Shown: piece by piece, positions 9,247-21,921 of the stretch | Numbering within the stretch: position 1 is the stretch's first letter | Layout of the letters: each line of letters starts with the position of its first letter | Source: an uncultured Acidobacteriota bacterium | Lineage (GTDB): Bacteria; Acidobacteriota; UBA6911 | DNA: 64,000 nucleotides | NCBI GenBank assembly: GCA_963827655.1 | Contig: CAWHCF010000013.1 | Location: 44,201 to 108,200, forward strand | Direction of reading: 5' to 3' | Notes under the pieces: generated by a model | The model's database searches: none | Seen by the model: the letters and a program-made list of their open reading frames with translations, nothing else | What the model was told of the DNA's origin: nothing | Translations under genes and position numbers: made by a program

Positions 9247-12200
9247 TCATCTTTGCAAGCTCTTCATGGCAGATGTCTTTTTTACTTGGTTCCGTCTTCG
9301 GACTTCCTCGTCCGTAGCTGCCGCGCCAGAGTTTCACCGTACTGTCGACACTTCCTGCGGCCAATCCTTTGCCATCCGGCGAAAATGCCACTGACGAGAC
9401 CATACCAACTCTAAGTCCGTTGAGAGTGACCATTTCCTGCCCTGTGATCAAATCCCAAAGCTTCACGGTCCGATCATAACTTCCGGAAACCAACCTCTTG
9501 CCGTCCGGCGAAAATGCCACTGAAGAGACCGGCTGCGTATGCCCCTTGAGAGTAAGCATTTCCTGTTCCGCGACCACGTCCCAAAGCTTAACGGTCCGGT
9601 CATAACTTCCCGAAGCCAACCTCTTCCCGTCCGGCGAAAATGCCACTGAACGAGACCGGCTCCGTATGCCCCTTGAGAGTAAGTGCTTCCTGCCCCGTGA
9701 CCACGTCCCACAGCTTCACAGTTCGGTCACAACTTCCCGAAGCCAATCTCTTCCCGTCCGGCGAAAATGCTACTGAAGAGACCGCACGCCGCATGCCCCT
9801 TGGAGAGTGAGCACTTCCTGCCCCGTGGCCACATCCCACAGCTTCACGATTGCGTCACGACTTCCCGAAGCCAACCTCTTGCCGTCTGGCGAAAATGCCA
9901 GTGACCGAACCTGACATGCCCCTTGAGAGTGAGCACTTCCTGCCCCGTGGCCACATCCCACAGCTTCACGGTTCCGTCATAACTTCCCGAAGCCAACCTC
10001 TTGCCGTCTGGCGAAAATGCCACTGACGAGACCTCCTGCCGCATGTCCCTTGAGAGTTGAGCAGTTCCTGCCCGGTGGCCACATCCCACAGCTTCACGGT
10101 TCGGTCATGACTTCCCGAAGCTAACCTCTTGCCGTCTGGCGAGAATGCCACAGAAGAGACCAGATCCGCATGCCCCTTGAAAGTAAGCAGTTCCTGCCCC
10201 GTGGCCACATCCCACAGCTTCACGGTTCGGTCATAACTTCCCGAAGCCAACCTCTTGCCGTCTGGCGAGAATGCCACTGAAGAGACCAGATCCGCATGCC
10301 CCTTGAGAGTGAGCACTTCCTGCCCCGTGGCCACGTCCCACAGCTTCACGGTTCGGTCATAACTTCCCGAAGCTAACCTCTTGCCATCGGGCGAAAATGC
10401 CACTGAAGAGACCAGACTCCGCGTGCCCCTTGAGAGTGAGCAGTTCCTGTCCCGTGGCCACGTCCCACAGCTTCACCGTTCGGTCATAACTTCCCGAAGC
10501 CAATCTCTTGCCATCTGGCGAAAATGCTAATGACAGGACCAGTTCCCACGTCTAGAGAGTGCCTTCCGTGCCCACTCCCACAACTTCTCGGCTAGGCTTC
10601 CCGAAGCCAACCTCGCGCCATCCAGCGAAAATGACGGGACTAACTCCGGATTTCCCCTGAGAGTGAGCAGTTCCTGTCCCGTTGCCACATCCCACAGCTT
10701 CAAGGTTAGGTCAGGACTTCCCGAAGCTAACCTCTTGCCGTCGGGCGAAAATGCTACTGACGCGAAGCCTCGCCGCGATGCCCCTTGAGAGTAAGCACTT
10801 CCTGCTCCCGTGGCCACATCCCACAGCTTCACGGTTCGATCATCACTTCCCGAAGCCAACCTCTTGCCGTCCGGCGAAAATGCTACTGACAGAGACCTCC
10901 CCTGCATGCCCCTTGAGAGTCAGTACGTTCCTGCCCCGTGACCACATCCCACAGCTTCACGGTTCGGTCACGACTTCCCGAAGCTAACCTCTTGCCGTCT
11001 GGCGAAAATGCTACTGAAGAGATCAGATCCGCATGTCCCCTCGAAAGTGAGCACGTTCCTGCCCAGTGGCCACATCCCACAGCTTCACGGTTCGGTCATA
11101 ACTTCCCGAAGCCAACCTCTTGCCGTCTGGCGAAAATGCCACTGAAGAGATCTGCCCTCGCATGCGGCAATGTGAATAGGTCGCCATGACAGAGTCGCCA
11201 GAAGTAATACCATTCAAAGCCGCGCAAATCCTCCTGGCCAGGCTTGGGCAAATGAGCCGTCAAGCAGCTCCCGCATACGCGCCAATGCTCGCTGTTTCCC
11301 AGGCTTGCTGAGCCAGGTTCATGTGTGCTGCATAAAGGAGCCGACGATTGGCCTGCTCCTGCTGAACCGCGCGATTGCGTTGCACGATCGAAACCACCGC
11401 GAAGACTGGCGATCACGAGAACAATGAGGGCCGCAACTCCCGCCGCGCGTAATAAACCGCGCCGATAGGCCGCGCGCTGGCGTCGCAGTTCGGCGTCGGG
11501 CATGTTCTCGGTGATCCACGCGCGGTCGAATACACGCTGCGTAAATCCGATTCCGCACCCTCAGGCTGACCATCCTCAACCCGCGTGATGCCCGACAGCC
11601 GAAGGATGCTGACCAGCGGGTTGGTCTCGTCGTCGCGGCACGCGCTTCTTTCGATGCACCTGCGCGTAGAGACTCAGCAACCCGGCCAGATCGACTTCGC
11701 TCCGCAGCATCCGCTCGCGCACGAACAGCAGGTTGTCGTCCCGCTCCCGCGCCCGGCGCGAAAAGAACAGCTCCTCGCATATCCGATCCACACCCTCGGG
11801 TCGCGTTCACGCTCGCGTCTTCGGCCACCGCCTGGCAAAGCCGCTGCGTCAGGTACGGATGCCCGCCGGTCCAATAAAGAATCCGCTTCGAGCAGCGCTC
11901 GCCGCGAGCTTCTCCTCGCGCCTTAGCCCCTGCGCCAGGGGTGCGGCTTCTGCCTCGGTGAAGTCGTGCAGCTCAATGCGCTGCCCAATGTTGAACGGCG
12001 TCGTACGCGTGTCCCGGATCAGATCCGAAGGCGTCGCCACGCCCGAGCAGGCAAAAGGTCAGTCGCTCCAGCTCCGGTTCTTCGCGTGCGGCGGTTGTAG
12101 AACTCCCGAATCCCGGCAAAGAACTCATCGGTCGAAAAGGGAAGGCTGCGGACCGAATCGATCTCGTCGATGAAGATCACCACGCGACCGACACAGCGGC

Positions 12201-12605
12201 GCAATATCACCTTCCGGATTGCCTGCAGTCCACCGCTGCAGCGGGCCGAGTCGGGTCTCGTCTTGCCAGAAATCCTCGAGCTCGTCTTCCAGATCGAGCT
12301 GCTGCCCGATCTGGCGTGAGCAGGCCGCCATACCACTGCTCGGCGCTGAGGTTCTGTCCGATCGCGGTCAGATCGAGCACGGCCACGCCGATTCCTTCTT
12401 CGCGCAGCCGCGCCGCCGTGCGCACCATGAGGGAGGATTTACCCATCTGCCGGGCGGTCAGGACGTAACAGAACTTGCCCTTGTTTGAGTCCTTCGTATA
12501 GCTCGGTGTCGGCCTGCCGCTCGACGTAGCAAGGCGGCATCGCGCCGCAGAGTCCCGCCGGTGACGTAGAAACCGCTGTTGAAGCTCGAGCCTGCTCGCG
12601 CTCAT
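9247..12605 (-). CDS. AAA_35 (STAND-like) ATPase - TM - WD40 repeat protein, many frameshifts
   Basis: Rebuilt across frames: FYVTGG, Walker [12 protein letters not shown], Walker [30 protein letters not shown], hydrophobic helix [28 protein letters not shown] linker, about 15 WD40 repeats. End is approximate. Confidence 0.8.
9320..11175 (-). repeat. Coding tandem array of about 15 near-identical ~126-bp WD40 units
   Basis: Recurrent cccacagcttcacggttcggtcataacttcccgaagccaacctcttgccgtctggcgaaaatgccactga, mostly every 122-129 bp; one shortened unit near 10577. Confidence 0.95.
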
Positions 12606-14828
12606 AGCAAATGTTTCTCCAGATACGTTGGCGTAAAGCTGACAGCGAGGCTTCACAGATTGCGCCGACTCACCTGACATCAAGCCCTGCACTGCGCAGA
12701 CGGTAAAAGCTCTCCGGACTAGGGCACGGCTGACCTCGCAGCACCCCCCGCACCACCTCACACAGAGCAGCGTCCTGCGCTGAGAGAGACGAGCATTCGG
12801 CGCAAATGATCGCCGAAAGGTCCTTCATCGTGATCGGCCTGAGCTTCGAAGGCGGGAAGGTCCGAAGCCATGAGTCGCCATCTCGTGCAGACCACGGCGG
12901 ACAAGGTAGGGATGACCGCCCACCAGCCGGTAATAACGCGCCAGCTCCGCCTTGTTTCTGAGCGGGGAACCATAGCGCTGGTTAAGTTCTTCTACTTGTT
13001 GGAAGGTGAAATCTTCGAGCCATAGTCGGGTTCCAACGTTGAACGGCGATTGGTTCAGGTCGGTGATAAACAGGTGCGCCTCGGTCGCATAGGCTATGGC
13101 GAGCGTGAGACGCTGCCACGGACCGGCAGGATCGAGCGCCCGCCTGTTGTGCCAGGAACGAAAGAGTCCGAAGACCTCGCTGCCAAAACTCGCAGGTGAA
13201 AAGCCGAGTCGACTTCATCCAGCCCCCAGACGATGGGCGACCCGACGTTGGCAAATACCTGGCGCCGCAAGTATCGCTCGAAGTTGATGCTGGAGCTGAG
13301 ATGGGGATTCCATGCCTCATGGGGAAACACATCGAGTCGAGCTGGTCCGCAAGCAATTCTGCCAGCGTCAGAAGTAATTTGTCGATCGATTGCAGATAAG
13401 CCGCGCTGAGGTTCTGAAAATCGGTGAGCACTACCCGCGCCCCTGCCTGTCGCGCCTTCTGCAAACCTCGAGCCAGCAGCGATGTCTTGCCCACCTGGCG
13501 CGCCCCTTTGACCAAAACAATGCTGTCCTGGCGCGCAATGGCAGAGTGGAATTCGATATCTGTGCGTCGAACAATGTAAAAATCAGAATCCAGCGCGACG
13601 GCTCCACCCACAGGCTCAAGCTTCCCGCCGGAAGGTGTCGGATGAGTGGGCCCAGTCGGGCTCCGATGGGCTGAGCGGCTGGGGCGGTGGTTGGTCCTCT
13701 TTGGCGTGCTCTACAGTCTGTGGCGCGTCCCGCTTCAGCCTGGCCTCAAGCTCCAGCTCGAGCCTCAGGCTTTTCAGATCGATCAGCAAGTCCATCGAGA
13801 CCTGGTAGCGCTCTTCACGGTCTTTCGCCAGGGCCTTGCTCACAATTCTTTCGAGCTCCTGGAGGAATCTCCCGAGTGTAGCGCGCCAGCGGCGGGGGCT
13901 GCTGATTCAAGATCGCGGCCATCACCTCGGCGGACGTAACCCCTTCAAACGGCTCACGTCTCGCCGCCATTTCATAGAGCACCACCCCGAGGCTAAAAAT
14001 GTCAGTCCTGCCGTCAACCGGCCGTCCCATTATCTGCTCCGGGGACATATACCGAGCCGTTCCCATCACCTTGCCCGGGTCGGTGTCCAGCTGTCCGATT
14101 GTTGAGACTTTGCGATCCTTGACGGAGGGTCGCTCGATCAACTTGGCCAGTCCAAAGTCCAAAACTTTGACGTACCCATCGCGCCTCACCATGATGTTCT
14201 CGGGCTTGATGTCGCGATGCACGATTCCAACCTCGTGGGCTCCCGACAGAGCGCTCGCGACTTGAACCGCCACGTCGAGAAGTTCCCGCACCTTGATCGG
14301 TGAGCCCGCGAGACGCTCCCGCAGCGTCTGCCCGTCGATGAATTCGGTGGCAATGAAATACGCTCCCTCGACCTCTCCGATCTCGAATATGGTAAGGATG
14401 TTGGGATGATTCAGCGCCGATGCGGCTCGAGCTTCCCGCTCGAAGCGTCGCACCCGTTCGCGATCCTGAGTGAACTCCCTGGGCAGAAACTTGAGCGCAA
14501 TTTTACGTCCTAGACGGGTGTCCTCCGCGAGATAGACCTCCCCCATCCCTCCGGCGCCAAGCAAGGAAAGTACCTGGTAGTGGCCAATCTGTCGCCCAAG
14601 CAAAGACGCGGTTTTGTCCGCGGCGATTGCTTCGGCTTCAACGTGCAAAGCGGGCGCGGTCAGGAAGCTGCCCGCTTGGTTGTGGGCCGCAAGTAGAGCC
14701 TCCACTTCCCTTCGTAATTCCTCATCGCTGCCGCAGGCTCTCTCGACGAACGAGGGGCGCTGGCTCTCTTCGCATTCGAGCGCGGAATAGTAGAGTTCGT
14801 TGATACGCTGCCACCGTTCAGGCTTCAT
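12602..14828 (-). CDS. Ser/Thr protein kinase fused to an AAA_35 ATPase domain, frameshifted
   Basis: [32 protein letters not shown]; Pro-rich linker; KLEPVGGAV, Walker [12 protein letters not shown], Walker B WGLDEVD; TGA overlaps the next ATG (ATGA, 12602-12605). Confidence 0.8.
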
Positions 14829-15094
14829 CTTATGCCCGAGGCTGACTTCGAAAAGGCTGAGAGGGCGCCGACCTGCACTGCCGCGCCCTCCTGGTCACAC
14901 TTCTGATAGTGCTTGCAGGTCTCAATTAGTAAGGCGTGGACCCTATCTCAAAGCTGCCAAGGAATCGAAAGATTGTTCGGTTACCCGTCTCCGCTGATCA
15001 GTCAAATGATATCGGCTCAGGTAAAGAGCAAACGCAATAGCAAGAGTTACCGCAAAGACGCCAAAACGCGAAGAGAACTATGGAGTCGATGATG

Positions 15095-15676
15095 TTAGCT
15101 GTTCTTCGTAACTTGTCCCAGCTCGCGATACAGCCAGGCTCGCGCAAGGTTCCACTCTCGCATGACCGTTCGGGGGGATACCTTCAGTACTTCAGCGGCT
15201 TCCTCCACACTCAGTCCACCAAAGAACTTCAACTCAACAATCTGGGCTTTGCGTGAGTCCAGCTTGGCCAGACTCTTCAATGCATCATCCAGTGCAATCA
15301 AGTCCCGTCCCCGGTCATGTGATAGAGTCGCAGCTTCCTCGAGCGAAACCTGCACCGCTTTCCCCCCTCGCTTGGTGTAGCGACGCGACCGGGCAAAATC
15401 GACCAGGATTCGCCGCATTAGCTGGGCTGCTACTCCGAAGAAATGCGCGCGGCTTTGCCAGTGCACATTTTTCCAGTCAACCAGGCGTAGGTAGGCTTCA
15501 TTGACCAGAGCAGTGGTCTGCAGAGCATGGCCGACCCGCTCTCGCTGCATGTACCTTCTGGCCAGCCGATGCAACTCCCCGTGGACCAGCGGGAGTATTT
15601 GGTCAAGAGCCGTCTGATCACCGTCGCTCCAAGCCAGGAGCAGCTGTGTGACTTCTTTGTTAGAGGATGTCGCCAT
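15095..15676 (-). CDS. ECF sigma factor, TIGR02999 (kinase-associated) family
   Basis: VTQLLLAWSDGD, LQTTALVNEAYLRL, HFFGVAAQLMRRILVD, VELKFFGGL, WNLARAWL. Confidence 0.92.
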   Translation of the reverse strand: MATSSNKEVTQLLLAWSDGDQTALDQILPLVHGELHRLARRYMQRERVGHALQTTALVNEAYLRLVDWKNVHWQSRAHFFGVAAQLMRRILVDFARSRRYTKRGGKAVQVSLEEAATLSHDRGRDLIALDDALKSLAKLDSRKAQIVELKFFGGLSVEEAAEVLKVSPRTVMREWNLARAWLYRELGQVTKNS

Positions 15677-15973
15677 TCCGCTTCCGAGGTTTAAACATCG
15701 CCGCTGAGGACCAGCTGCTCGAGTCTAGCATCGATCCTAACAGTCAGGCCAATATGCTCTAAAATCACCCCGCGATGAGGCTTGGAGTCTAATACGGTTT
15801 GGGCTCCCTGGATTGGACCAAGCTTGTTTAGGGCTCTGCTTACGAGGTGGCGGCTTCCTTAATATTTACGGCGCGCACCTGCAACGCGCCCTCCCGGTTG
15901 AGATTCGATGCTGTTTGCTTTAGTCTAAAAATATCGATGTTATCAGGCAATCGAAAAGGGAAGCGGCGGGTTC

Positions 15974-16038
15974 TTGGAGTGCGGTAGCTTGTTAAGCTTG
16001 TTACCGCCCTGGTTGGCGAAGCTTGCTTCGCCTTGTGC
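15974..16038 (+). repeat. Dispersed REP-like palindromic element, family A copy 1
   Basis: TTGGAGTGCGGTAGCTTG..TACCGCCCTGGTTGGCGAAGCTTGCTTCGCC; related reverse-strand copies at ~30240, ~42607 and ~61755. Confidence 0.75.
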
Positions 16039-16113
16039 AAGCAACGAACTTGCGAATTGCATGCCTCTGGTTTTCGGGCGCCGTGTCACCTGGAGAGGAG
16101 GCGAGGAGCCGAA

Positions 16114-16989
16114 ATGACAGCAGCGACGAAAGCAGCGCCGGCGCGTCGGGACACTATCGATCAAGTGATCGAAGCGCTGAACGATGTCGTGGACAGCGCA
16201 CGGCGCGAAGGGAGTCGCCTGGGGTATTTTGCCGCGCTGTACCGCAACGTAACCATCGAGGTAAAGCGAGGCATCGCTCAGGGACGATTCGACGACGGCG
16301 GACGCATGGAGCGCTTCGACGTGATATTTGCGGGTCGCTACCTGGCGGCGCTTGAGTCTTACCGCCGGGGCGAGCGAACCAGTCAATGCTGGGTGACCTG
16401 CTTTCAAAGCTGCCCTCAGTGGCGGCCGATCGTCCTTCAGCACCTGCTGCTCGGAATGAACGCCCACATCAATTTTGACCTCGCGGTCGCCGCTGCAACG
16501 ACGGCGCCCGGTCAGGAACTCGCGGCTCTCAGGCGCGATTTCGATGAGATCAACAATATCCTTTCGGCCATGATCGGAGGCGTCCAATACCGTCTCTCCC
16601 TGATCTGGCCCTGGATGTGGCTGTTGGACCGCATCGGCGGCAGAACACAAAACGCCATCCTCAACTTCTCCATCGAGCACGCGCGGCGGGCGGCCTGGGC
16701 GGCCGCCGAACGCCTGGCTTTCATCGATCCGGGGCGGCGCGATGCCGAGCTCGAAGAGCTGGACCGAAGCGCAGCGCGGATTGCTCATCTGGTCCGGAAT
16801 CCTCCTCTGACCATTCGCCTCGCCAACCTCTGGGTCCGAATGGGCGAACTGCGCGACATCCGAAAGATCATTGACTGTCTCTGTCTAGGGCTTCACCGTC
16901 TCCGTGTCCTGGCGGCTGGCTTTTTTCTGCACGCGCCAAGGAGCTCCAGGGGGGGGCTGCGCTTGACTTTGCCAAACCGCGTGTGCTAG
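16114..16989 (+). CDS. DUF5995-family protein
   Basis: GYFAALY, F..IFAGRYL, LLLGMNAHINFDL, DFDEINNIL; GAGGAG RBS. The C-terminus may be extended by an indel. Confidence 0.8.
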   Translation: MTAATKAAPARRDTIDQVIEALNDVVDSARREGSRLGYFAALYRNVTIEVKRGIAQGRFDDGGRMERFDVIFAGRYLAALESYRRGERTSQCWVTCFQSCPQWRPIVLQHLLLGMNAHINFDLAVAAATTAPGQELAALRRDFDEINNILSAMIGGVQYRLSLIWPWMWLLDRIGGRTQNAILNFSIEHARRAAWAAAERLAFIDPGRRDAELEELDRSAARIAHLVRNPPLTIRLANLWVRMGELRDIRKIIDCLCLGLHRLRVLAAGFFLHAPRSSRGGLRLTLPNRVC

Positions 16990-17089: not shown

Positions 17090-20000
17090 ATGAACAAGAG
17101 AACATCCAGTTATTGTGGTGGCGCGCTTTGCCTGTTACTTCTCGTCGCGACGGCCGGCGCGCAACAGTTTACCGGAACACTTCAGGGCGTTGTCCGGGAC
17201 GCGAGCGGCGCGGTCATTCCCGGCGCTGAAGTATCCGTGACCAACGCGGGCACCAACCAAAGCCGAATCCTGATCACCGATGCCAGCGGAGCCTACGTGG
17301 CTCCCCTCTTGAAGCCGGGAACCTATCGCGTCTCGGTAAGGCTGACGGGCTTCAAGACCTCGACGATCGACGAGGTCAAGATTGACGTTCAGCAGACGCG
17401 CGTTGTCGACCTGCGTCTCGATGTCGGCGAGATGAACGATACCGTGAACGTCTCGGCGAACGCTGCAGCGCTCGAAGTCTCGACCTCAACCGTCAACCAG
17501 ACCATCGAGAACAAACGGATTGTCGATCTGCCGCTGAACGGCCGCAATCCTTTCACTCTGGCGACGCTGAGCCCCGGCGTGATTCCGGCTCCCGGCTCCT
17601 CCCCCTGGATCAGCGGGGGACGCAATGCCACGAGCGAAGTTACCATCGATGGCGTCTCGAACGTGGGGCCGGAAAACAACGTCTCAATCCTCGATCTGCT
17701 CTACACTCCCTCGGTGGACGCCGTCCAGGAATTCAACGTTCAGACCAATGTGGTCAGCGCCGAGTTCGGGCGGCTCGGCGGCGGGGTGATCAACGTCATT
17801 ACCCGCAGCGGTACCAACGCATTCCACGCCAGCTTGTATGAGTTTCACCGCAATTCGGCCCTGGATGCGAACAACTTCTTCAGCAATCGGGCCGGCATTC
17901 CACTGCGCAGCTTCAAGCGCAACCAGTTCGGCGCGACCGCGGGCGGCCCGGTCGTGATTCCGGGACTCTACCGCGGACGCGATCGCACGTTCTTTTTCGT
18001 CGACTACGAAGGACAGCGACAGAGCGCCGCGAGTGTCTCGACTTTCACCGTGCCGCTCAACGAATGGCGTCGCGGCGACTTCTCGGGCTTGCGCAATGCG
18101 TCCGGGAATCCGATTCTCATCTACGATCCGCTGACCACGCGCGAAGTCAGTCCGGGAAGATTTGCCCGCGATCCCTTTGCGGGGAACATCATTCCCGAGA
18201 CGCGCATCAATCCGGTCGCGCGCAGCGTGATGCCGTTCTGGCCGCAGCCCAACGTCGCTCCCACAAGCGTGTTTACCCAGACCAATAACTATGCGGCCGC
18301 CGGATCGGCCGTGAGCGACTTCGACAAGTTCGACGCGCGCGTCGACCACAACATTCTTCCGAACTGGCGGGTCTTCGTTCGTGGCTCGGCGCAGTGGGGC
18401 AAAGGCATACCCGTCAACTTCTTCGGCAATGTCGCCACCCCCAGCGGCTCCGGGCCAAGCGACAGCGGGAACCGGAGTGTCACAATCGATCAGGCCATCA
18501 CGCTCAACCCCAGGCTGCTGTTGAACGTCCGCTACGGTTTCGGGCGCCGCTTCACCAACGCGCGGCCGTTTTCGACCGGCTACGATTTCACTCAGCTCGG
18601 TTTTCCGCAATCCGTAAAGCGCGCCGCGGAGCTTCAGGCGCTCGAGTTCCCGCGCTTTAACGCCAGCGGGCTGACGTCTCTTGGGCAGCCGACTTTCACC
18701 GATCTGGACATCCTGCCGATGACTCACTCGTTCAACGTAAATCTGACACAGACGACCGGACGGCACACCCTCAAGTGGGGCATGGACTACCGCAAGCTGA
18801 TGATTAATTTCCTCCAGCTCGGTCAGCCTTCGGGAGAGTACAGCTTTGATTCCCGCTGGACGCAGCTGGATCCCAACGTAGCCAGCTCGACGGCCGGGTT
18901 CGGCCTCGCCTCGCTGCTGATCGGCGTTCCGACCGGCGGGCAGATCAGCCACGACCCCACGCCCGCATCGGCCAGCTCTTACTGGGCCTGGTACCTCCAG
19001 GACGATTGGAAGCTGACCTCGCGTCTGACCCTTAACCTCGGCTTGCGCTACGAGCTCGACGTACCACGAACCGAGCGGTTCGATCGGCTGGCCATTTTCC
19101 GTTTCGACGCCCCCTCACCGATCGCGGGCCGGGTCGCGGGGTTCCCGAACCTGAGAGGCGCGATGGACTTCGTCGATGAGGACAACCGGCGCCAGGCGCC
19201 GACCGACAGGAACAACTGGGGTCCGCGCTTCGGATTCGCTTATAACCTGACCGACAAGACCGTCGTGCGCGGCGCCTACGGCGTTTTCTTCTCGGCCTCG
19301 GCGCTGCAGGCTGCAGGGCACACCGGAACGGCGGGGATGGAGGGTTTTCGCAGTTCGACTCCCTTCGTCACCAGCCTGGACGGCCGCACACCCCTCAACT
19401 TCCTCGAGAATCCCTTTCCCGACGGCTTCAACTTTCCCACCGGAAAGTCGCTGGGCGCCGAGACGTTCCTGGGTCTCGGGGTTAGCGAGAGCGTCTTCGT
19501 CGACGACGCCAATCCGTACATTCAGCAGTGGAATTTCAATCTGCAGCGGGAGATGCCCGGGAGTGTCGTCTTTGAGGCGGCCTACATTGGATCGAAGGGG
19601 ACGCGCCTGATCGATGGCGAAAGCGGTGTCGTGCTGAACCAGCTGCCGGTGGAATTTCAAAGGTTGGGAACGCAGCTGCAGAATCTGGTTCCCAATCCCT
19701 TTTTTGGCGTAATCACGAATCCGGTTTCGACGCTCAGCCGGTCCGAGGTACAGCTGGGCCAGCTGTTGCGTCCTTATCCGCAGTACACGGCCGTCAACGG
19801 TTTCCGCAAGCCGAATGGGTTTTCCATCTATCACGCGCTCACCCTTAGAGCCGACAAACGCTTCTCGCGCGGCCTCAGCTTCCTGGCGTCGTACACCTGG
19901 GGCAAACTGATCGACGACGTATCGCAGACCGTGACCTTCCTGGGACCGGCCGGAAACAAGCAGGACGCTTACAACCGCAAGGCCGAGCGTTCGATCTCGA

Positions 20001-20566
20001 CTCAGGACGTGGCGCAGCGCCTGGTTCTCAGCTACGTGTATGAGCTCCCCTTCGGGACGAACAAGCGGTTATTCAACGGTGACGGCTGGGCCACGCGCTG
20101 GTTACTGAGCGGGTGGCAATTCAACGGTATCACGACTTTTCAGGGCGGGACGCCGCTGATTATCACGAGCGGACAGAACAACACCGGCCTCTTCAGCCCC
20201 GGACAGCGCCCGAACACAAATGGCGAGAGCGCGCGCCTGACAGGCGGAACGCGTTCCGAGCGCATAGCGAAGTGGTTTGACACTTCGGTTTTTTCCTTTG
20301 CGCCGCCGTTTACTTTTGGCAGTGTGCCGCGGACATTGCCGGACGCTCGCACGCCAGGGACGAGCCTTTGGGACCTCTCGGTTTTCAAAAACACAACTTT
20401 TGGAGAGGGGAGGTACACGGTCCAGTTCCGGGCGGAGTTCTTCAATGCATTCAACAACGTCAACCTCAACGCCCCGGAACAAAGCCTGGCGTCGGGTAGC
20501 TTTGGCGCAATCTCGGCGGCCGGAGGCCCGCGTCAGATCCAGGTTGCGTTGAAGCTGCTGTTCTGA
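17090..20566 (+). CDS. TonB-dependent receptor (Oar-like, carboxypeptidase-regulatory N-terminal domain)
   Basis: Signal peptide, DLPLNGRN, DAVQEF, TRSGTN, YLQDDWK, LNLGLRYE, NWGPRFGFA, QFRAEFFN, RQIQVALKLLF. Confidence 0.93.
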   Translation: MNKRTSSYCGGALCLLLLVATAGAQQFTGTLQGVVRDASGAVIPGAEVSVTNAGTNQSRILITDASGAYVAPLLKPGTYRVSVRLTGFKTSTIDEVKIDVQQTRVVDLRLDVGEMNDTVNVSANAAALEVSTSTVNQTIENKRIVDLPLNGRNPFTLATLSPGVIPAPGSSPWISGGRNATSEVTIDGVSNVGPENNVSILDLLYTPSVDAVQEFNVQTNVVSAEFGRLGGGVINVITRSGTNAFHASLYEFHRNSALDANNFFSNRAGIPLRSFKRNQFGATAGGPVVIPGLYRGRDRTFFFVDYEGQRQSAASVSTFTVPLNEWRRGDFSGLRNASGNPILIYDPLTTREVSPGRFARDPFAGNIIPETRINPVARSVMPFWPQPNVAPTSVFTQTNNYAAAGSAVSDFDKFDARVDHNILPNWRVFVRGSAQWGKGIPVNFFGNVATPSGSGPSDSGNRSVTIDQAITLNPRLLLNVRYGFGRRFTNARPFSTGYDFTQLGFPQSVKRAAELQALEFPRFNASGLTSLGQPTFTDLDILPMTHSFNVNLTQTTGRHTLKWGMDYRKLMINFLQLGQPSGEYSFDSRWTQLDPNVASSTAGFGLASLLIGVPTGGQISHDPTPASASSYWAWYLQDDWKLTSRLTLNLGLRYELDVPRTERFDRLAIFRFDAPSPIAGRVAGFPNLRGAMDFVDEDNRRQAPTDRNNWGPRFGFAYNLTDKTVVRGAYGVFFSASALQAAGHTGTAGMEGFRSSTPFVTSLDGRTPLNFLENPFPDGFNFPTGKSLGAETFLGLGVSESVFVDDANPYIQQWNFNLQREMPGSVVFEAAYIGSKGTRLIDGESGVVLNQLPVEFQRLGTQLQNLVPNPFFGVITNPVSTLSRSEVQLGQLLRPYPQYTAVNGFRKPNGFSIYHALTLRADKRFSRGLSFLASYTWGKLIDDVSQTVTFLGPAGNKQDAYNRKAERSISTQDVAQRLVLSYVYELPFGTNKRLFNGDGWATRWLLSGWQFNGITTFQGGTPLIITSGQNNTGLFSPGQRPNTNGESARLTGGTRSERIAKWFDTSVFSFAPPFTFGSVPRTLPDARTPGTSLWDLSVFKNTTFGEGRYTVQFRAEFFNAFNNVNLNAPEQSLASGSFGAISAAGGPRQIQVALKLLF

Positions 20567-20844: not shown

Positions 20845-21921
20845 CTACCGCAGGGTGCGGATGAAGCTGCGGATGACCTCGCTCTTTTCGTCCGGTCGTT
20901 CCGTGTATTGATGGACTTCCAGCCCACCGATGTCGCTGGGCAGCTCGAGATCACTTTCTCTAACCAGCAGGAGCAGGCGGTCGAGTCCCAGTCGGCCCCA
21001 GAACCATCCCAACTCGAGCCAGACGTTCTGGCGCGCCCGCTTTCGGAGGTTGGTTCCACCGGCGATCCCTCCGAGATCGTCGGGCGTCGCCACGACGATC
21101 GCGCCCTGCCCCTCGCCGGCGAGCCGTTCAAGCTTCGCCGGTAAGGTAGCGCCGGACACGAACTCCTCCTTCATTACCGTGAGTTGCACATTCAGCTCGT
21201 CCTCGTGTCGATTGAGAAAATTCTCCAGCAATTCGTGATCGAGGCCGTGTCCGTGGACGATGAAGATCTTCAACCGACGAGGGCCTTCGGCCCCGAGAGC
21301 TTTGAGTGCCAAGGACCGAACAGTGTCGTTCCAGGGATTCTCGAACTGGCTCAACAGATCCGGCTCGAGCATATGAGCGCGCCAGTCGTCCGATGCGCGG
21401 TTGAATGTATTCCGAAACTCATAGATCAGTTCGGCTCCCGCCCCGCCGAACGCGCCTACAGGAACGACGCGGCGGCGGCTGACCGCGCCGGCGATTCCCG
21501 CGTAATAGGCCTTTTCCGCTCCCCCGAGAATTACCGCCGCATCGGAATGCCGAATGACGCTCAGCTTGAGGAAAGCCGGCTCATCCGGACCCCAGCGCTC
21601 CGTCAGGAACGTCAGAGTGGACCGCCAATTTGCGAACAGGTCCGCTTCTTGAATTTTCGGCCGCACGAGCAGGATTTTGCCGCGGTTGTTCGCTGGGTCG
21701 AGCTTGACCGCCTGAGCAGCACCCTCGACGGCATGGTAGTCGGCGGTGCCGGGCTCACCCGAGGCGACAACCAGGGTGTGGCCGAGAGTGAAGATCCGGG
21801 AGCCAAGCGAACGACACGCCTCAGGGAAGATCTCGTGGTTCTTCGTGTGCCACTTGCTCTCGCCGGCCGTCTCGTGAGTTCCGGCCGCCGCCACCAGACC
21901 GCCGAGGAACGCGATATTCAT
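20845..21921 (-). CDS. SLOG domain - TIR (PF10137, CAP12/Pycsar-type) fusion protein
   Basis: N-terminal LOG-like motifs (EACRSLG, GHTLVV, TAD, SDAAVILGG, PVGAFGGAG); C-terminal KIFIVHGH, AIVVATPDD, RARQNVWLELGWFWGRLG, LPSDIGG. Confidence 0.8.
   Translation of the reverse strand: MNIAFLGGLVAAAGTHETAGESKWHTKNHEIFPEACRSLGSRIFTLGHTLVVASGEPGTADYHAVEGAAQAVKLDPANNRGKILLVRPKIQEADLFANWRSTLTFLTERWGPDEPAFLKLSVIRHSDAAVILGGAEKAYYAGIAGAVSRRRVVPVGAFGGAGAELIYEFRNTFNRASDDWRAHMLEPDLLSQFENPWNDTVRSLALKALGAEGPRRLKIFIVHGHGLDHELLENFLNRHEDELNVQLTVMKEEFVSGATLPAKLERLAGEGQGAIVVATPDDLGGIAGGTNLRKRARQNVWLELGWFWGRLGLDRLLLLVRESDLELPSDIGGLEVHQYTERPDEKSEVIRSFIRTLR

Follow-up and report, generated by a model that had tools for sequence, protein, structure and literature searches.

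A split kinase and sensor pair of AAA_35 NTPases beside an ECF43-like sigma factor gene in an uncultured Acidobacteriota bacterium

We analyzed a 64,000-nt stretch of contig CAWHCF010000013.1 (assembly GCA_963827655.1) from an uncultured Acidobacteriota bacterium (UBA6911), hereafter the window; coordinates are positions in this stretch unless another contig is named. On its minus strand, an extracytoplasmic function (ECF) sigma factor gene is followed by gene 1, which encodes a Hanks-type kinase joined to an AAA_35 NTPase domain, and then by gene 2, which encodes a second AAA_35 domain, a hydrophobic helix and an array of WD40 repeats. The two large genes are a member of a large two-protein receptor family of soil bacteria. 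We lean towards the view that all three genes form one unit, in which a sensor NTPase carrying a propeller acts on a kinase-NTPase that activates the ECF43-type sigma factor by phosphorylation.

Organization of the locus and conservation of the AAA_35 pair

The features below were assigned with the help of intact relatives, above all P0001, a 739-aa metagenome protein corresponding to gene 1. STAND denotes signal transduction ATPases with numerous domains and TM a transmembrane segment.

15095..15676, minus strand: ECF sigma factor, TIGR02999 or ECF43-like, 193 aa, intact (PF07638, E=1.2e-57; TIGR02999, 224.9 bits)
14829..15094, minus strand: spacer of 266 nt from the sigma stop to the kinase start (sequence reading and lists of open reading frames)
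12602..14828, minus strand: gene 1, with an 83-aa N-terminal extension, Hanks kinase, linker and AAA_35 (STAND-like NTPase) (frameshift-aware alignment to P0001; Pfam)
14580..14828, minus strand: N-terminal extension of the kinase, residues 1-83 (the Pkinase domain begins at residue 84 in P0001)
13797..14579, minus strand: Hanks-type kinase domain (PF00069, 9e-47 over the first 337 aa, which are open; motifs visible in the alignment)
12615..13605, minus strand: AAA_35 domain 1, with Walker A, Walker B WGLDEVD and a GGHPYL motif (PF14516 fragments, 59.1 + 100.1 bits)
12602..12605, minus strand: ATGA, start of gene 2 overlapping the stop of gene 1 (direct sequence reading)
9247..12605, minus strand: gene 2, with an AAA_35-type NTPase, TM helix, juxtamembrane linker and 15 WD40 units (read-through against intact relatives)
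11480..12575, minus strand: AAA_35 domain 2, Walker A ARQMGKSS (window fragment, 20.6 bits; invariant columns of relatives)
11380..11452, minus strand: single hydrophobic (TM) helix after a basic motif (frame-following read-through)
9290..11165, minus strand: WD40 array of 15 units of ~42 aa, one degenerate near 10540-10600, predicted extracytoplasmic (TRF; PF00400, E=8e-44 and 1e-37)

Gene 1 runs from an ATG at 14828 to a TGA at 12604-12602, and gene 2 from an ATG at 12605-12603 to a stop at 9249-9247. No open reading frame with a start codon was seen in the spacer, either in the lists or by reading the sequence. The GxGxxG, VAIK-type Lys, HRD, DFG and SPE motifs of the kinase are all there in the alignment. 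The sigma factor lies well above the curated TIGR02999 cut-off of 126.15 bits. For PF14516 (gathering cut-off, 27 bits), residues 408-735 of P0001 match with 260 bits; the gene 2 fragment falls under the cut-off, and intact relatives of gene 2 reach 92-106 bits. In the WD40 region, TRF found a period of 128 with 14.4 copies over 9360-11165, and both PF00400 matches come from open fragments of the broken array. The units are nearly identical to one another, most differences falling in the three residues after GH and in SGSxDx, and two propellers may meet at the degenerate unit.

An earlier note on this DNA, made from the letters alone, had described two translationally coupled AAA_35 genes, the first with a kinase and no TM segment, the second with a hydrophobic helix and about 15 WD40 repeats, and had proposed checking them with PF14516, PF00069 and PF00400. 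This description was borne out. All three models match, the ATGA junction was read directly, the array has 15 units including the degenerate one, and no TM segment was found in gene 1, the maximum 19-residue Kyte-Doolittle score of P0001 being 1.12. In intact relatives (P0001 and dozens more), a single gene encodes both kinase and AAA_35. As the pairing is also conserved and the indels of the window copy are missing from independent contigs, none of the three outcomes named in the earlier note as refuting its reading was found.

The pair was found to be conserved and modular at both ends. When a 129-aa AAA_35 fragment was used as a database query, at least 4670 matches were obtained at E<=0.001, and the precomputed domains preceding AAA_35 in these matches were kinase, kinase plus TIR, TIR (some with a cyclase) and OmpR-type winged helix-turn-helix (wHTH), as confirmed by Pfam scans. 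A metagenome scan with an AAA_35-only alignment gave 80 loci, whose open reading frames were annotated by phmmer with protein pieces from the window and the database. A paralogous second AAA_35 gene came next on the same strand in 65 of the 73 loci with at least 400 nt downstream, and a 4-nt overlap was the commonest spacing (21 of 65 pairs). TIR or kinase-TIR was the output in 37 of the 80 loci, and the swaps of effector ahead of the first AAA_35 that had been suggested as a check were thus found as kinase, kinase-TIR, TIR and wHTH forms. The sensors following AAA_35 in intact partners were likewise of several types, namely WD40, TPR, NHL and PEGA/CarboxypepD_reg; for plain-kinase forms, all 12 complete partners were of the TM-WD40 type. 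A hydrophobic helix after a conserved basic motif was present in 40 of 42 complete partner proteins. Both exceptions (L143 and L163) are TM-less and without WD40, and L143, which was domain-scanned, carries NHL repeats. None of 67 gene-1-type proteins reached a Kyte-Doolittle score of 1.9.

On a quick maximum-likelihood tree of 37 first AAA_35 domains (AAA1), the class of the N-terminal head needs only two changes and that of the partner's sensor five; the head swaps are therefore old. Pairwise identities of AAA1 and of the partner domain (AAA2) are correlated (Mantel r=0.73, a value reached in 0 of 2000 permutations). Pairing, coupling and co-inheritance suggest that the two proteins work together. 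Furthermore, gene 1 has an output and an NTPase but no sensor, and gene 2 an NTPase and a sensor but no output, so each corresponds to one half of the classical STAND layout.

Within the phylum, the AAA_35 domain was present at E<=1e-20 in 10 of 301 sampled genomes, this one included; genomes with the domain have intact frames, adjacent partner matches and up to four copies each. The fragment query matched none of the 40 nearest genomes, which is not proof of absence but indicates that the family is not a lineage trait. At some loci, two to four sensor-type (AAA_35-TM-WD40) genes stand in a row behind one output gene (L145:3829-16671; L105, L107 and L109; G252:C89:2787-8016), which suggests one output subunit with several alternative sensor subunits. 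A 1,896-aa protein with kinase, AAA, AAA and WD40 domains (P0002) was considered as a natural fusion and rejected. Its first AAA_35 match ends at profile position 296, with the last ~50 residues of the domain out of frame and the chain passing into the frame of the partner; it is probably a frameshift or gene-call artefact merging two overlapping genes.

Sigma factor linkage, NTPase fold and proposed mechanism

The sigma factor gene is tied to one form of the family. Among loci with room upstream, an ECF sigma gene preceded 16 of 18 plain kinase-AAA_35 genes, one of two double-kinase genes and none of 36 other forms, so that the adjacency pointed out earlier is specific to the plain-kinase form. 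A scan of genome contigs with P0001 returned mainly ECF-kinase pairs of Acidobacteriota and Verrucomicrobiota, with AAA_35 only in L010 and L011. Of the kinases matching P0001 from residue 10 or before, and hence sharing the 83-aa extension, 57 had room upstream, and 51 of these were preceded by an ECF gene, as against 0 of 15 for those matching only from residues 60-81. In kinase-TIR forms the kinase domain begins near residue 11. These comparisons suggest that the extension is the part specific to sigma-linked kinases. On the sigma side, Thr55 of the window protein sits in the sigma-2 motif GHxLQ(T/P)(T/S)ALVNEAYLRL, and position 55 is T or S in all 20 ECFs adjoining kinase-AAA_35 genes.

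These features have a precedent in the ECF43 class. The hallmark of the class is a Hanks kinase occurring alongside (PMC7826278). PknS combines an 83-aa N-terminal extension with a TM helix and periplasmic TPRs and phosphorylates the ECF43 sigma factor EcfK at T51 and T106, PknT phosphorylates EcfP at the residue matching T51, and the PknS-EcfK pair responds to amoeba contact (PMC13147305). The window locus resembles both EcfK-PknS of Xanthomonas citri and EcfP-PknT of Vibrio parahaemolyticus in that a TIGR02999-type ECF gene adjoins a Hanks kinase gene with no anti-sigma gene. Further likenesses are the ~83-aa extension before the catalytic domain and an extracytoplasmic repeat domain as the origin of the signal, predicted as such here; the conserved sigma-2 Thr/Ser may be another. 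However, kinase, TM helix and periplasmic TPR form one chain in PknS, whereas the kinase protein here has a STAND-like NTPase in place of a TM helix, and both helix and sensor belong to the product of gene 2, which has a paralogous NTPase of its own. Acidobacteriota also have kinase-TM-WD40 proteins encoded beside ECF genes (L012, L073 and L086), with the kinase inside and the propeller outside, but as one chain with no NTPase switch; in the window, the chain is split and an NTPase pair is interposed. Mycobacterium tuberculosis PknD is a receptor Hanks kinase with an extracellular beta-propeller. Its layout of kinase, TM and sensor on one polypeptide is not found in gene 1, given the maximum hydropathy of 1.12. 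ECF43 is the one sigma class known to be activated by direct phosphorylation; studies cover only two pairs, in each of which the kinase itself is the receptor.

No published description of a paired AAA_35 system was found in our literature searches, and the searched passages of the main text of a STAND census (PMC13581612) do not mention one; its supplements may list the clade. The statement in the earlier note that no system of this architecture had been characterized therefore holds for the AAA_35 pair as far as the literature searches reach, and fails for the sigma-kinase half, which matches the characterized ECF43 pathway (PknS-EcfK and PknT-EcfP).

The NTPase was then compared by fold, since no PDB entry matched AAA_35 significantly by sequence (best E=0.056). 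For this, 37 sequences were used to build an AlphaFold2 model of AAA1 (pLDDT 86.6, pTM 0.80), which was searched with Foldseek. The best matches were PAB2304 (2qen, E=6e-10) and SSO1545 (2fna, E=2e-9), at a TM-score of ~0.6, and further matches were Avs3, Avs4, MalT, Orc/Cdc6 and CED-4 (including 8dgc, 8dgf and 8bob). According to this model, AAA_35 is a STAND or Orc-like module of nucleotide-binding, helical and winged-helix domains, in agreement with the STAND character first proposed. PAB2304 and SSO1545, STAND NTPases of the MNS-like kind, share this P-loop, helical and winged-helix layout at a sequence identity of ~16%, but are archaeal single-domain proteins of unknown role rather than a paired, membrane-spanning form. 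Among the solved STANDs in the fold-search matches, none has an outward sensor across a membrane. For both domains, all 37 sequences keep Walker A (GKT/S) and Walker B hhhhDE(V/I)D, and the window read-through has them too. AAA_35 is possibly the Npun2340/2341 family of Leipe et al. 2004. Protein atlas clusters (AAA_35, nSTAND-like) matched at 0.82, below the 0.9 mark, and were set aside as leads only.

In the mechanism that we propose, gene 2 would be a membrane-anchored sensor subunit with a cytoplasmic AAA_35 NTPase, one TM helix and an outward double propeller of ~14-15 WD40 blades. Gene 1 would be a soluble output subunit in which the paralogous AAA_35 NTPase is joined to a Hanks kinase with all its catalytic motifs and to the sigma-linked N-terminal extension, and the upstream gene would supply an ECF43-type sigma factor without an anti-sigma partner. 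A ligand or envelope event at the propeller would alter the sensor NTPase in its nucleotide or its oligomeric state, and this NTPase would then recruit or co-assemble with its sister on the kinase subunit. Once clustered, the kinases would autophosphorylate and would also phosphorylate the conserved Thr/Ser in sigma-2 of the sigma factor (T55 in the window protein), and the phosphorylated sigma factor would bind RNA polymerase and switch on its regulon. The propeller is placed outside the cell on account of the basic N-terminal flank of the helix, which would make the pair a transmembrane receptor rather than a cytosolic NLR (NOD-like receptor)-type sensor of phage proteins.

Co-assembly of the two NTPases was modelled with the two cytoplasmic domains of locus L122. 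The heterodimer gave a median ipSAE of 0.49, against 0.14 for the best control, with the runs agreeing in at least 60% of contacts and a partner pLDDT of at least 81. Of 80 solved complexes, 58 pass the mark used for complexes, as do 2 of 110 mismatches; at scores of 0.60 or below, those passing are just 7 of the 80 solved complexes and both mismatches. The hetero-oligomer suggested in the earlier note is thus weakly supported in silico. The two NTPases might instead not co-assemble at all, gene 2 being an independent membrane protein that is co-transcribed on other grounds and the kinase being regulated by its own AAA_35 alone. The weak prediction, the loci without an adjacent partner and the complete Walker motifs, with which each domain could homo-oligomerise, would fit such an arrangement. 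We nevertheless regard it as quite unlikely, given that gene 1 lacks a sensor domain and gene 2 an output domain, that 65 of 73 loci have the genes side by side with the 4-nt overlap as the commonest spacing, and that the pairs are co-inherited (Mantel r=0.73).

Several observations weigh against a single sensor-kinase-sigma unit as proposed here. Paralogous STAND domains could pass the complex mark by likeness. Eight of the 73 loci have no adjacent partner downstream (L112, L121, L136, L139, L147, L148, L151 and L160), although in L121 the partner gene lies upstream. The correspondence of T55 to T51 of EcfK is tentative; the sigma and kinase genes are 266 nt apart here, and many relatives overlap; and the topology rests on one hydrophobic helix and the charge distribution, the anchor being the only export signal considered.

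If the sensor-kinase-sigma unit operates as outlined, the receptor is split, its sensor and kinase being connected through a pair of STAND NTPases, and NLR-type switches are linked with sigma-factor phosphorylation. The AAA_35 pair family, with its at least 4670 database matches, would gain a measurable output in transcription from one sigma factor, making its signal, assembly and topology experimentally approachable. Should the sensor truly face outward, an NLR-like switch would be working across a membrane.

Frame breaks in the two large genes

Past 13856, no frame stays open for long, and AAA_35 and WD40 fragments are spread over all three frames. Using our own protein-to-DNA alignment allowing frameshifts against intact relatives, we found ~41 single- or double-base indels, nearly all insertions, between 13856 and 9325 across both large genes; the concern over indels raised in the earlier note was real. 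Gene 1 is identical to P0001 in 717 of 738 residues (97%), with nine single-base events (eight insertions and one deletion, at ~13856, 13657, 13337, 13204, 13188, 12860, 12778, 12684 and 12629) and no stops. Gene 2 has ~32 indels in total, nearly all +1 insertions. Its first 518 codons, compared with the intact L113 partner, gave 407 of 511 identical residues and 17 events, all +1 insertions; the WD40 array holds ~14 further events, of ambiguous placement, 10 of them insertions, and one more insertion lies near 9325. In the non-repeat part, 25 of 26 events are insertions, one base each, and reading the window copy through across the frame changes leaves no in-frame stop. Breaks are absent from the sigma gene, from the first 970 nt of gene 1 and from the two flanking genes. 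As a control, the long OMP_b-brl_4 family of this genome was examined (67 rows, matches up to ~2.7 kb); 62 rows are stop-free, which indicates that the damage is local to this locus.

Contigs from four soil or sediment metagenome runs of four studies were compared with the window over 11200-15700, where thinly covered parts carry no meaning. At 98-99% identity, contigs of the four runs do not have the indels. Among the indels listed, beyond which there are 27 further rows, the contigs omit exactly one base at 12041, 12226, 12315, 12475, 12531 and 12570; the insertions placed by protein alignment that match these gaps are at 12041, 12226, 12314, 12471, 12532 and 12575. One contig of 1326 nt, covering 12801-14130, shows 27 substitutions and exactly six gaps, the number of gene 1 events in that span, and short contigs with one to four substitutions have one gap each at event sites (13657 and 13856).

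A second, paralogous copy of the pair lies in the same genome at C18:40.2-45.5 kb. The ratio of nonsynonymous to synonymous substitution (dN/dS) between the copies was 0.126 for gene 1 (295 codons) and 0.115 for gene 2 (376 codons), and that against L113 was 0.078, with dS saturated in all three comparisons; such figures point to strong purifying selection.

The insertion-dominated single-base events, their absence from near-identical DNA, the stop-free read-through and the purifying selection lead us to conclude with high confidence that the breaks are consensus errors in a polymorphic, paralog-rich locus, a far better fit than natural decay, and both genes are accordingly taken as intact in the organism. 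Were they instead true pseudogenes, the system would be inactivated and decaying, with only the sigma gene surviving. The density of ~41 breaks within 4.5 kb in a genome that is otherwise mostly clean would suit such decay, as would the state of the C18 copy, which is likewise broken (27 events of mixed type, two in-frame stops) and coincides with the window copy in two break sites (codons 96 and 125 of gene 2). We consider decay very unlikely. Bacterial mutation is biased to deletions, contrary to the 25 of 26 insertions of exactly one base, and neither the read-through without in-frame stops, the 97% identity of gene 1 to an intact protein, the dN/dS of ~0.12 between the two copies nor the four runs with contigs free of the indels agrees with it. 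Besides the broken C18 copy, two features of the contig comparison weigh against consensus errors. The extra base is missing in only part of the depth at several sites (e.g., 16.9 of 51.2 at 12570), and no run contains more than 0.25 of the sampled words of the stretch, which means that the contigs belong to close relatives and are not reads of this strain.

Further observations were made on this genome. Another ECF sigma gene follows the C18 copy on the same strand (C18:45497-46144). Almost no open frame of 200 aa or more is found in C18:34000-40000, C8:185000-189000 and C9:0-3000, which may be non-coding, rRNA or more error-dense patches. The first of these lies directly upstream of the broken C18 locus and contains fragments of an outer-membrane protein gene in differing frames. 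Genome scans for phase switches in GC content at third codon positions and for open-frame coverage were blind to the known breaks and are uninformative on other error patches.

A possible role in immunity and the surroundings of the locus

The pair could also be an NLR-like conflict or immunity receptor, in which the propeller senses phage, predator or competitor and a kinase-ECF or TIR NADase output leads to defence or cell death. This account overlaps in mechanism with the signalling unit proposed above and differs in biological role. It is in line with the TIR and kinase-TIR effectors in 37 of 80 loci, with a sensor class that changed at least five times on the AAA1 tree, with the tandem arrays of sensor genes at L145 and other loci, and with the patchy distribution of the family (10 of 301 genomes of the phylum, up to four copies per genome). 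The WD40 units hardly differ except in the three residues after GH and in SGSxDx, and repeats of fungal NLRs similarly consist of near-identical units varying at few positions. A CAP12/Pycsar-type TIR protein is encoded 5 kb off, and Avs3 and Avs4 are among the fold matches. The amoeba contact response of the characterized PknS-EcfK pair (PMC13147305) points in the same direction.

Nevertheless, an immune role appears unlikely to us. When PADLOC models were applied, the kinase matched generic kinase models only and AAA_35 matched no known defence family, with no match of significance (weak PDC-S01 and mad8, at E 1.7e-5 or worse); the pattern-recognition role suggested in the earlier note gained no support from these models. 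In addition, the predicted location of the sensor is outside the cell, which sets it apart from known anti-phage STANDs; the wHTH forms resemble ordinary transcription regulators; and the N-terminal class changed only twice on the tree, indicating old rather than rapid swaps. The OmpR-type wHTH head of these sibling forms recalls AfsR and the Streptomyces antibiotic regulatory proteins.

Avs3/Avs4 and MalT/AfsR-type STANDs resemble the pair in NTPase fold and in the tripartite layout of effector, NTPase and repeats, but are single-chain and cytosolic; here, there are two chains, with the sensor predicted beyond the membrane. In NAIP-NLRC4 and in paired plant NLRs, two paralogous STANDs, one for recognition and one for output, are activated by co-assembly. 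Those proteins are cytosolic with repeats on each partner, whereas here the sensor is predicted to be membrane-anchored with outward repeats and the output partner is repeat-less. A broader proposal, tentative and in our judgement somewhat doubtful, is that soil bacteria have a large class of two-protein, membrane-spanning NLR-like receptors, in which an outward, diversifying repeat subunit nucleates a paralogous effector NTPase, the kinase/ECF form leading through sigma phosphorylation to a transcriptional defence programme. If true, this class would be the trans-membrane counterpart of NAIP-NLRC4, and, judging from the tandem arrays, one output subunit may serve several alternative sensor subunits.

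The genes around the locus were also annotated. The TIR protein mentioned above (358 aa, positions 20845-21921, minus strand) has a C-terminal TIR of the CAP12/Pycsar-effector type (PF10137, 5.7e-21), a domain associated with defence, at a distance of ~5 kb from the sigma gene. The opposite strand upstream of the sigma operon encodes a TonB-dependent-receptor-like outer-membrane protein (CarboxypepD_reg + OMP_b-brl_4), intact at 1158 aa (17090-20566, plus strand). Five of the 67 matches of the OMP_b-brl_4-type family in this genome have internal stops, and the window protein was too distant to align with the fragmented region upstream of the C18 copy. Between the sigma and outer-membrane genes are two long overlapping open frames (15943-16788, minus strand, and 16033-16989, plus strand), the minus-strand one having no Pfam or NCBIfam match.

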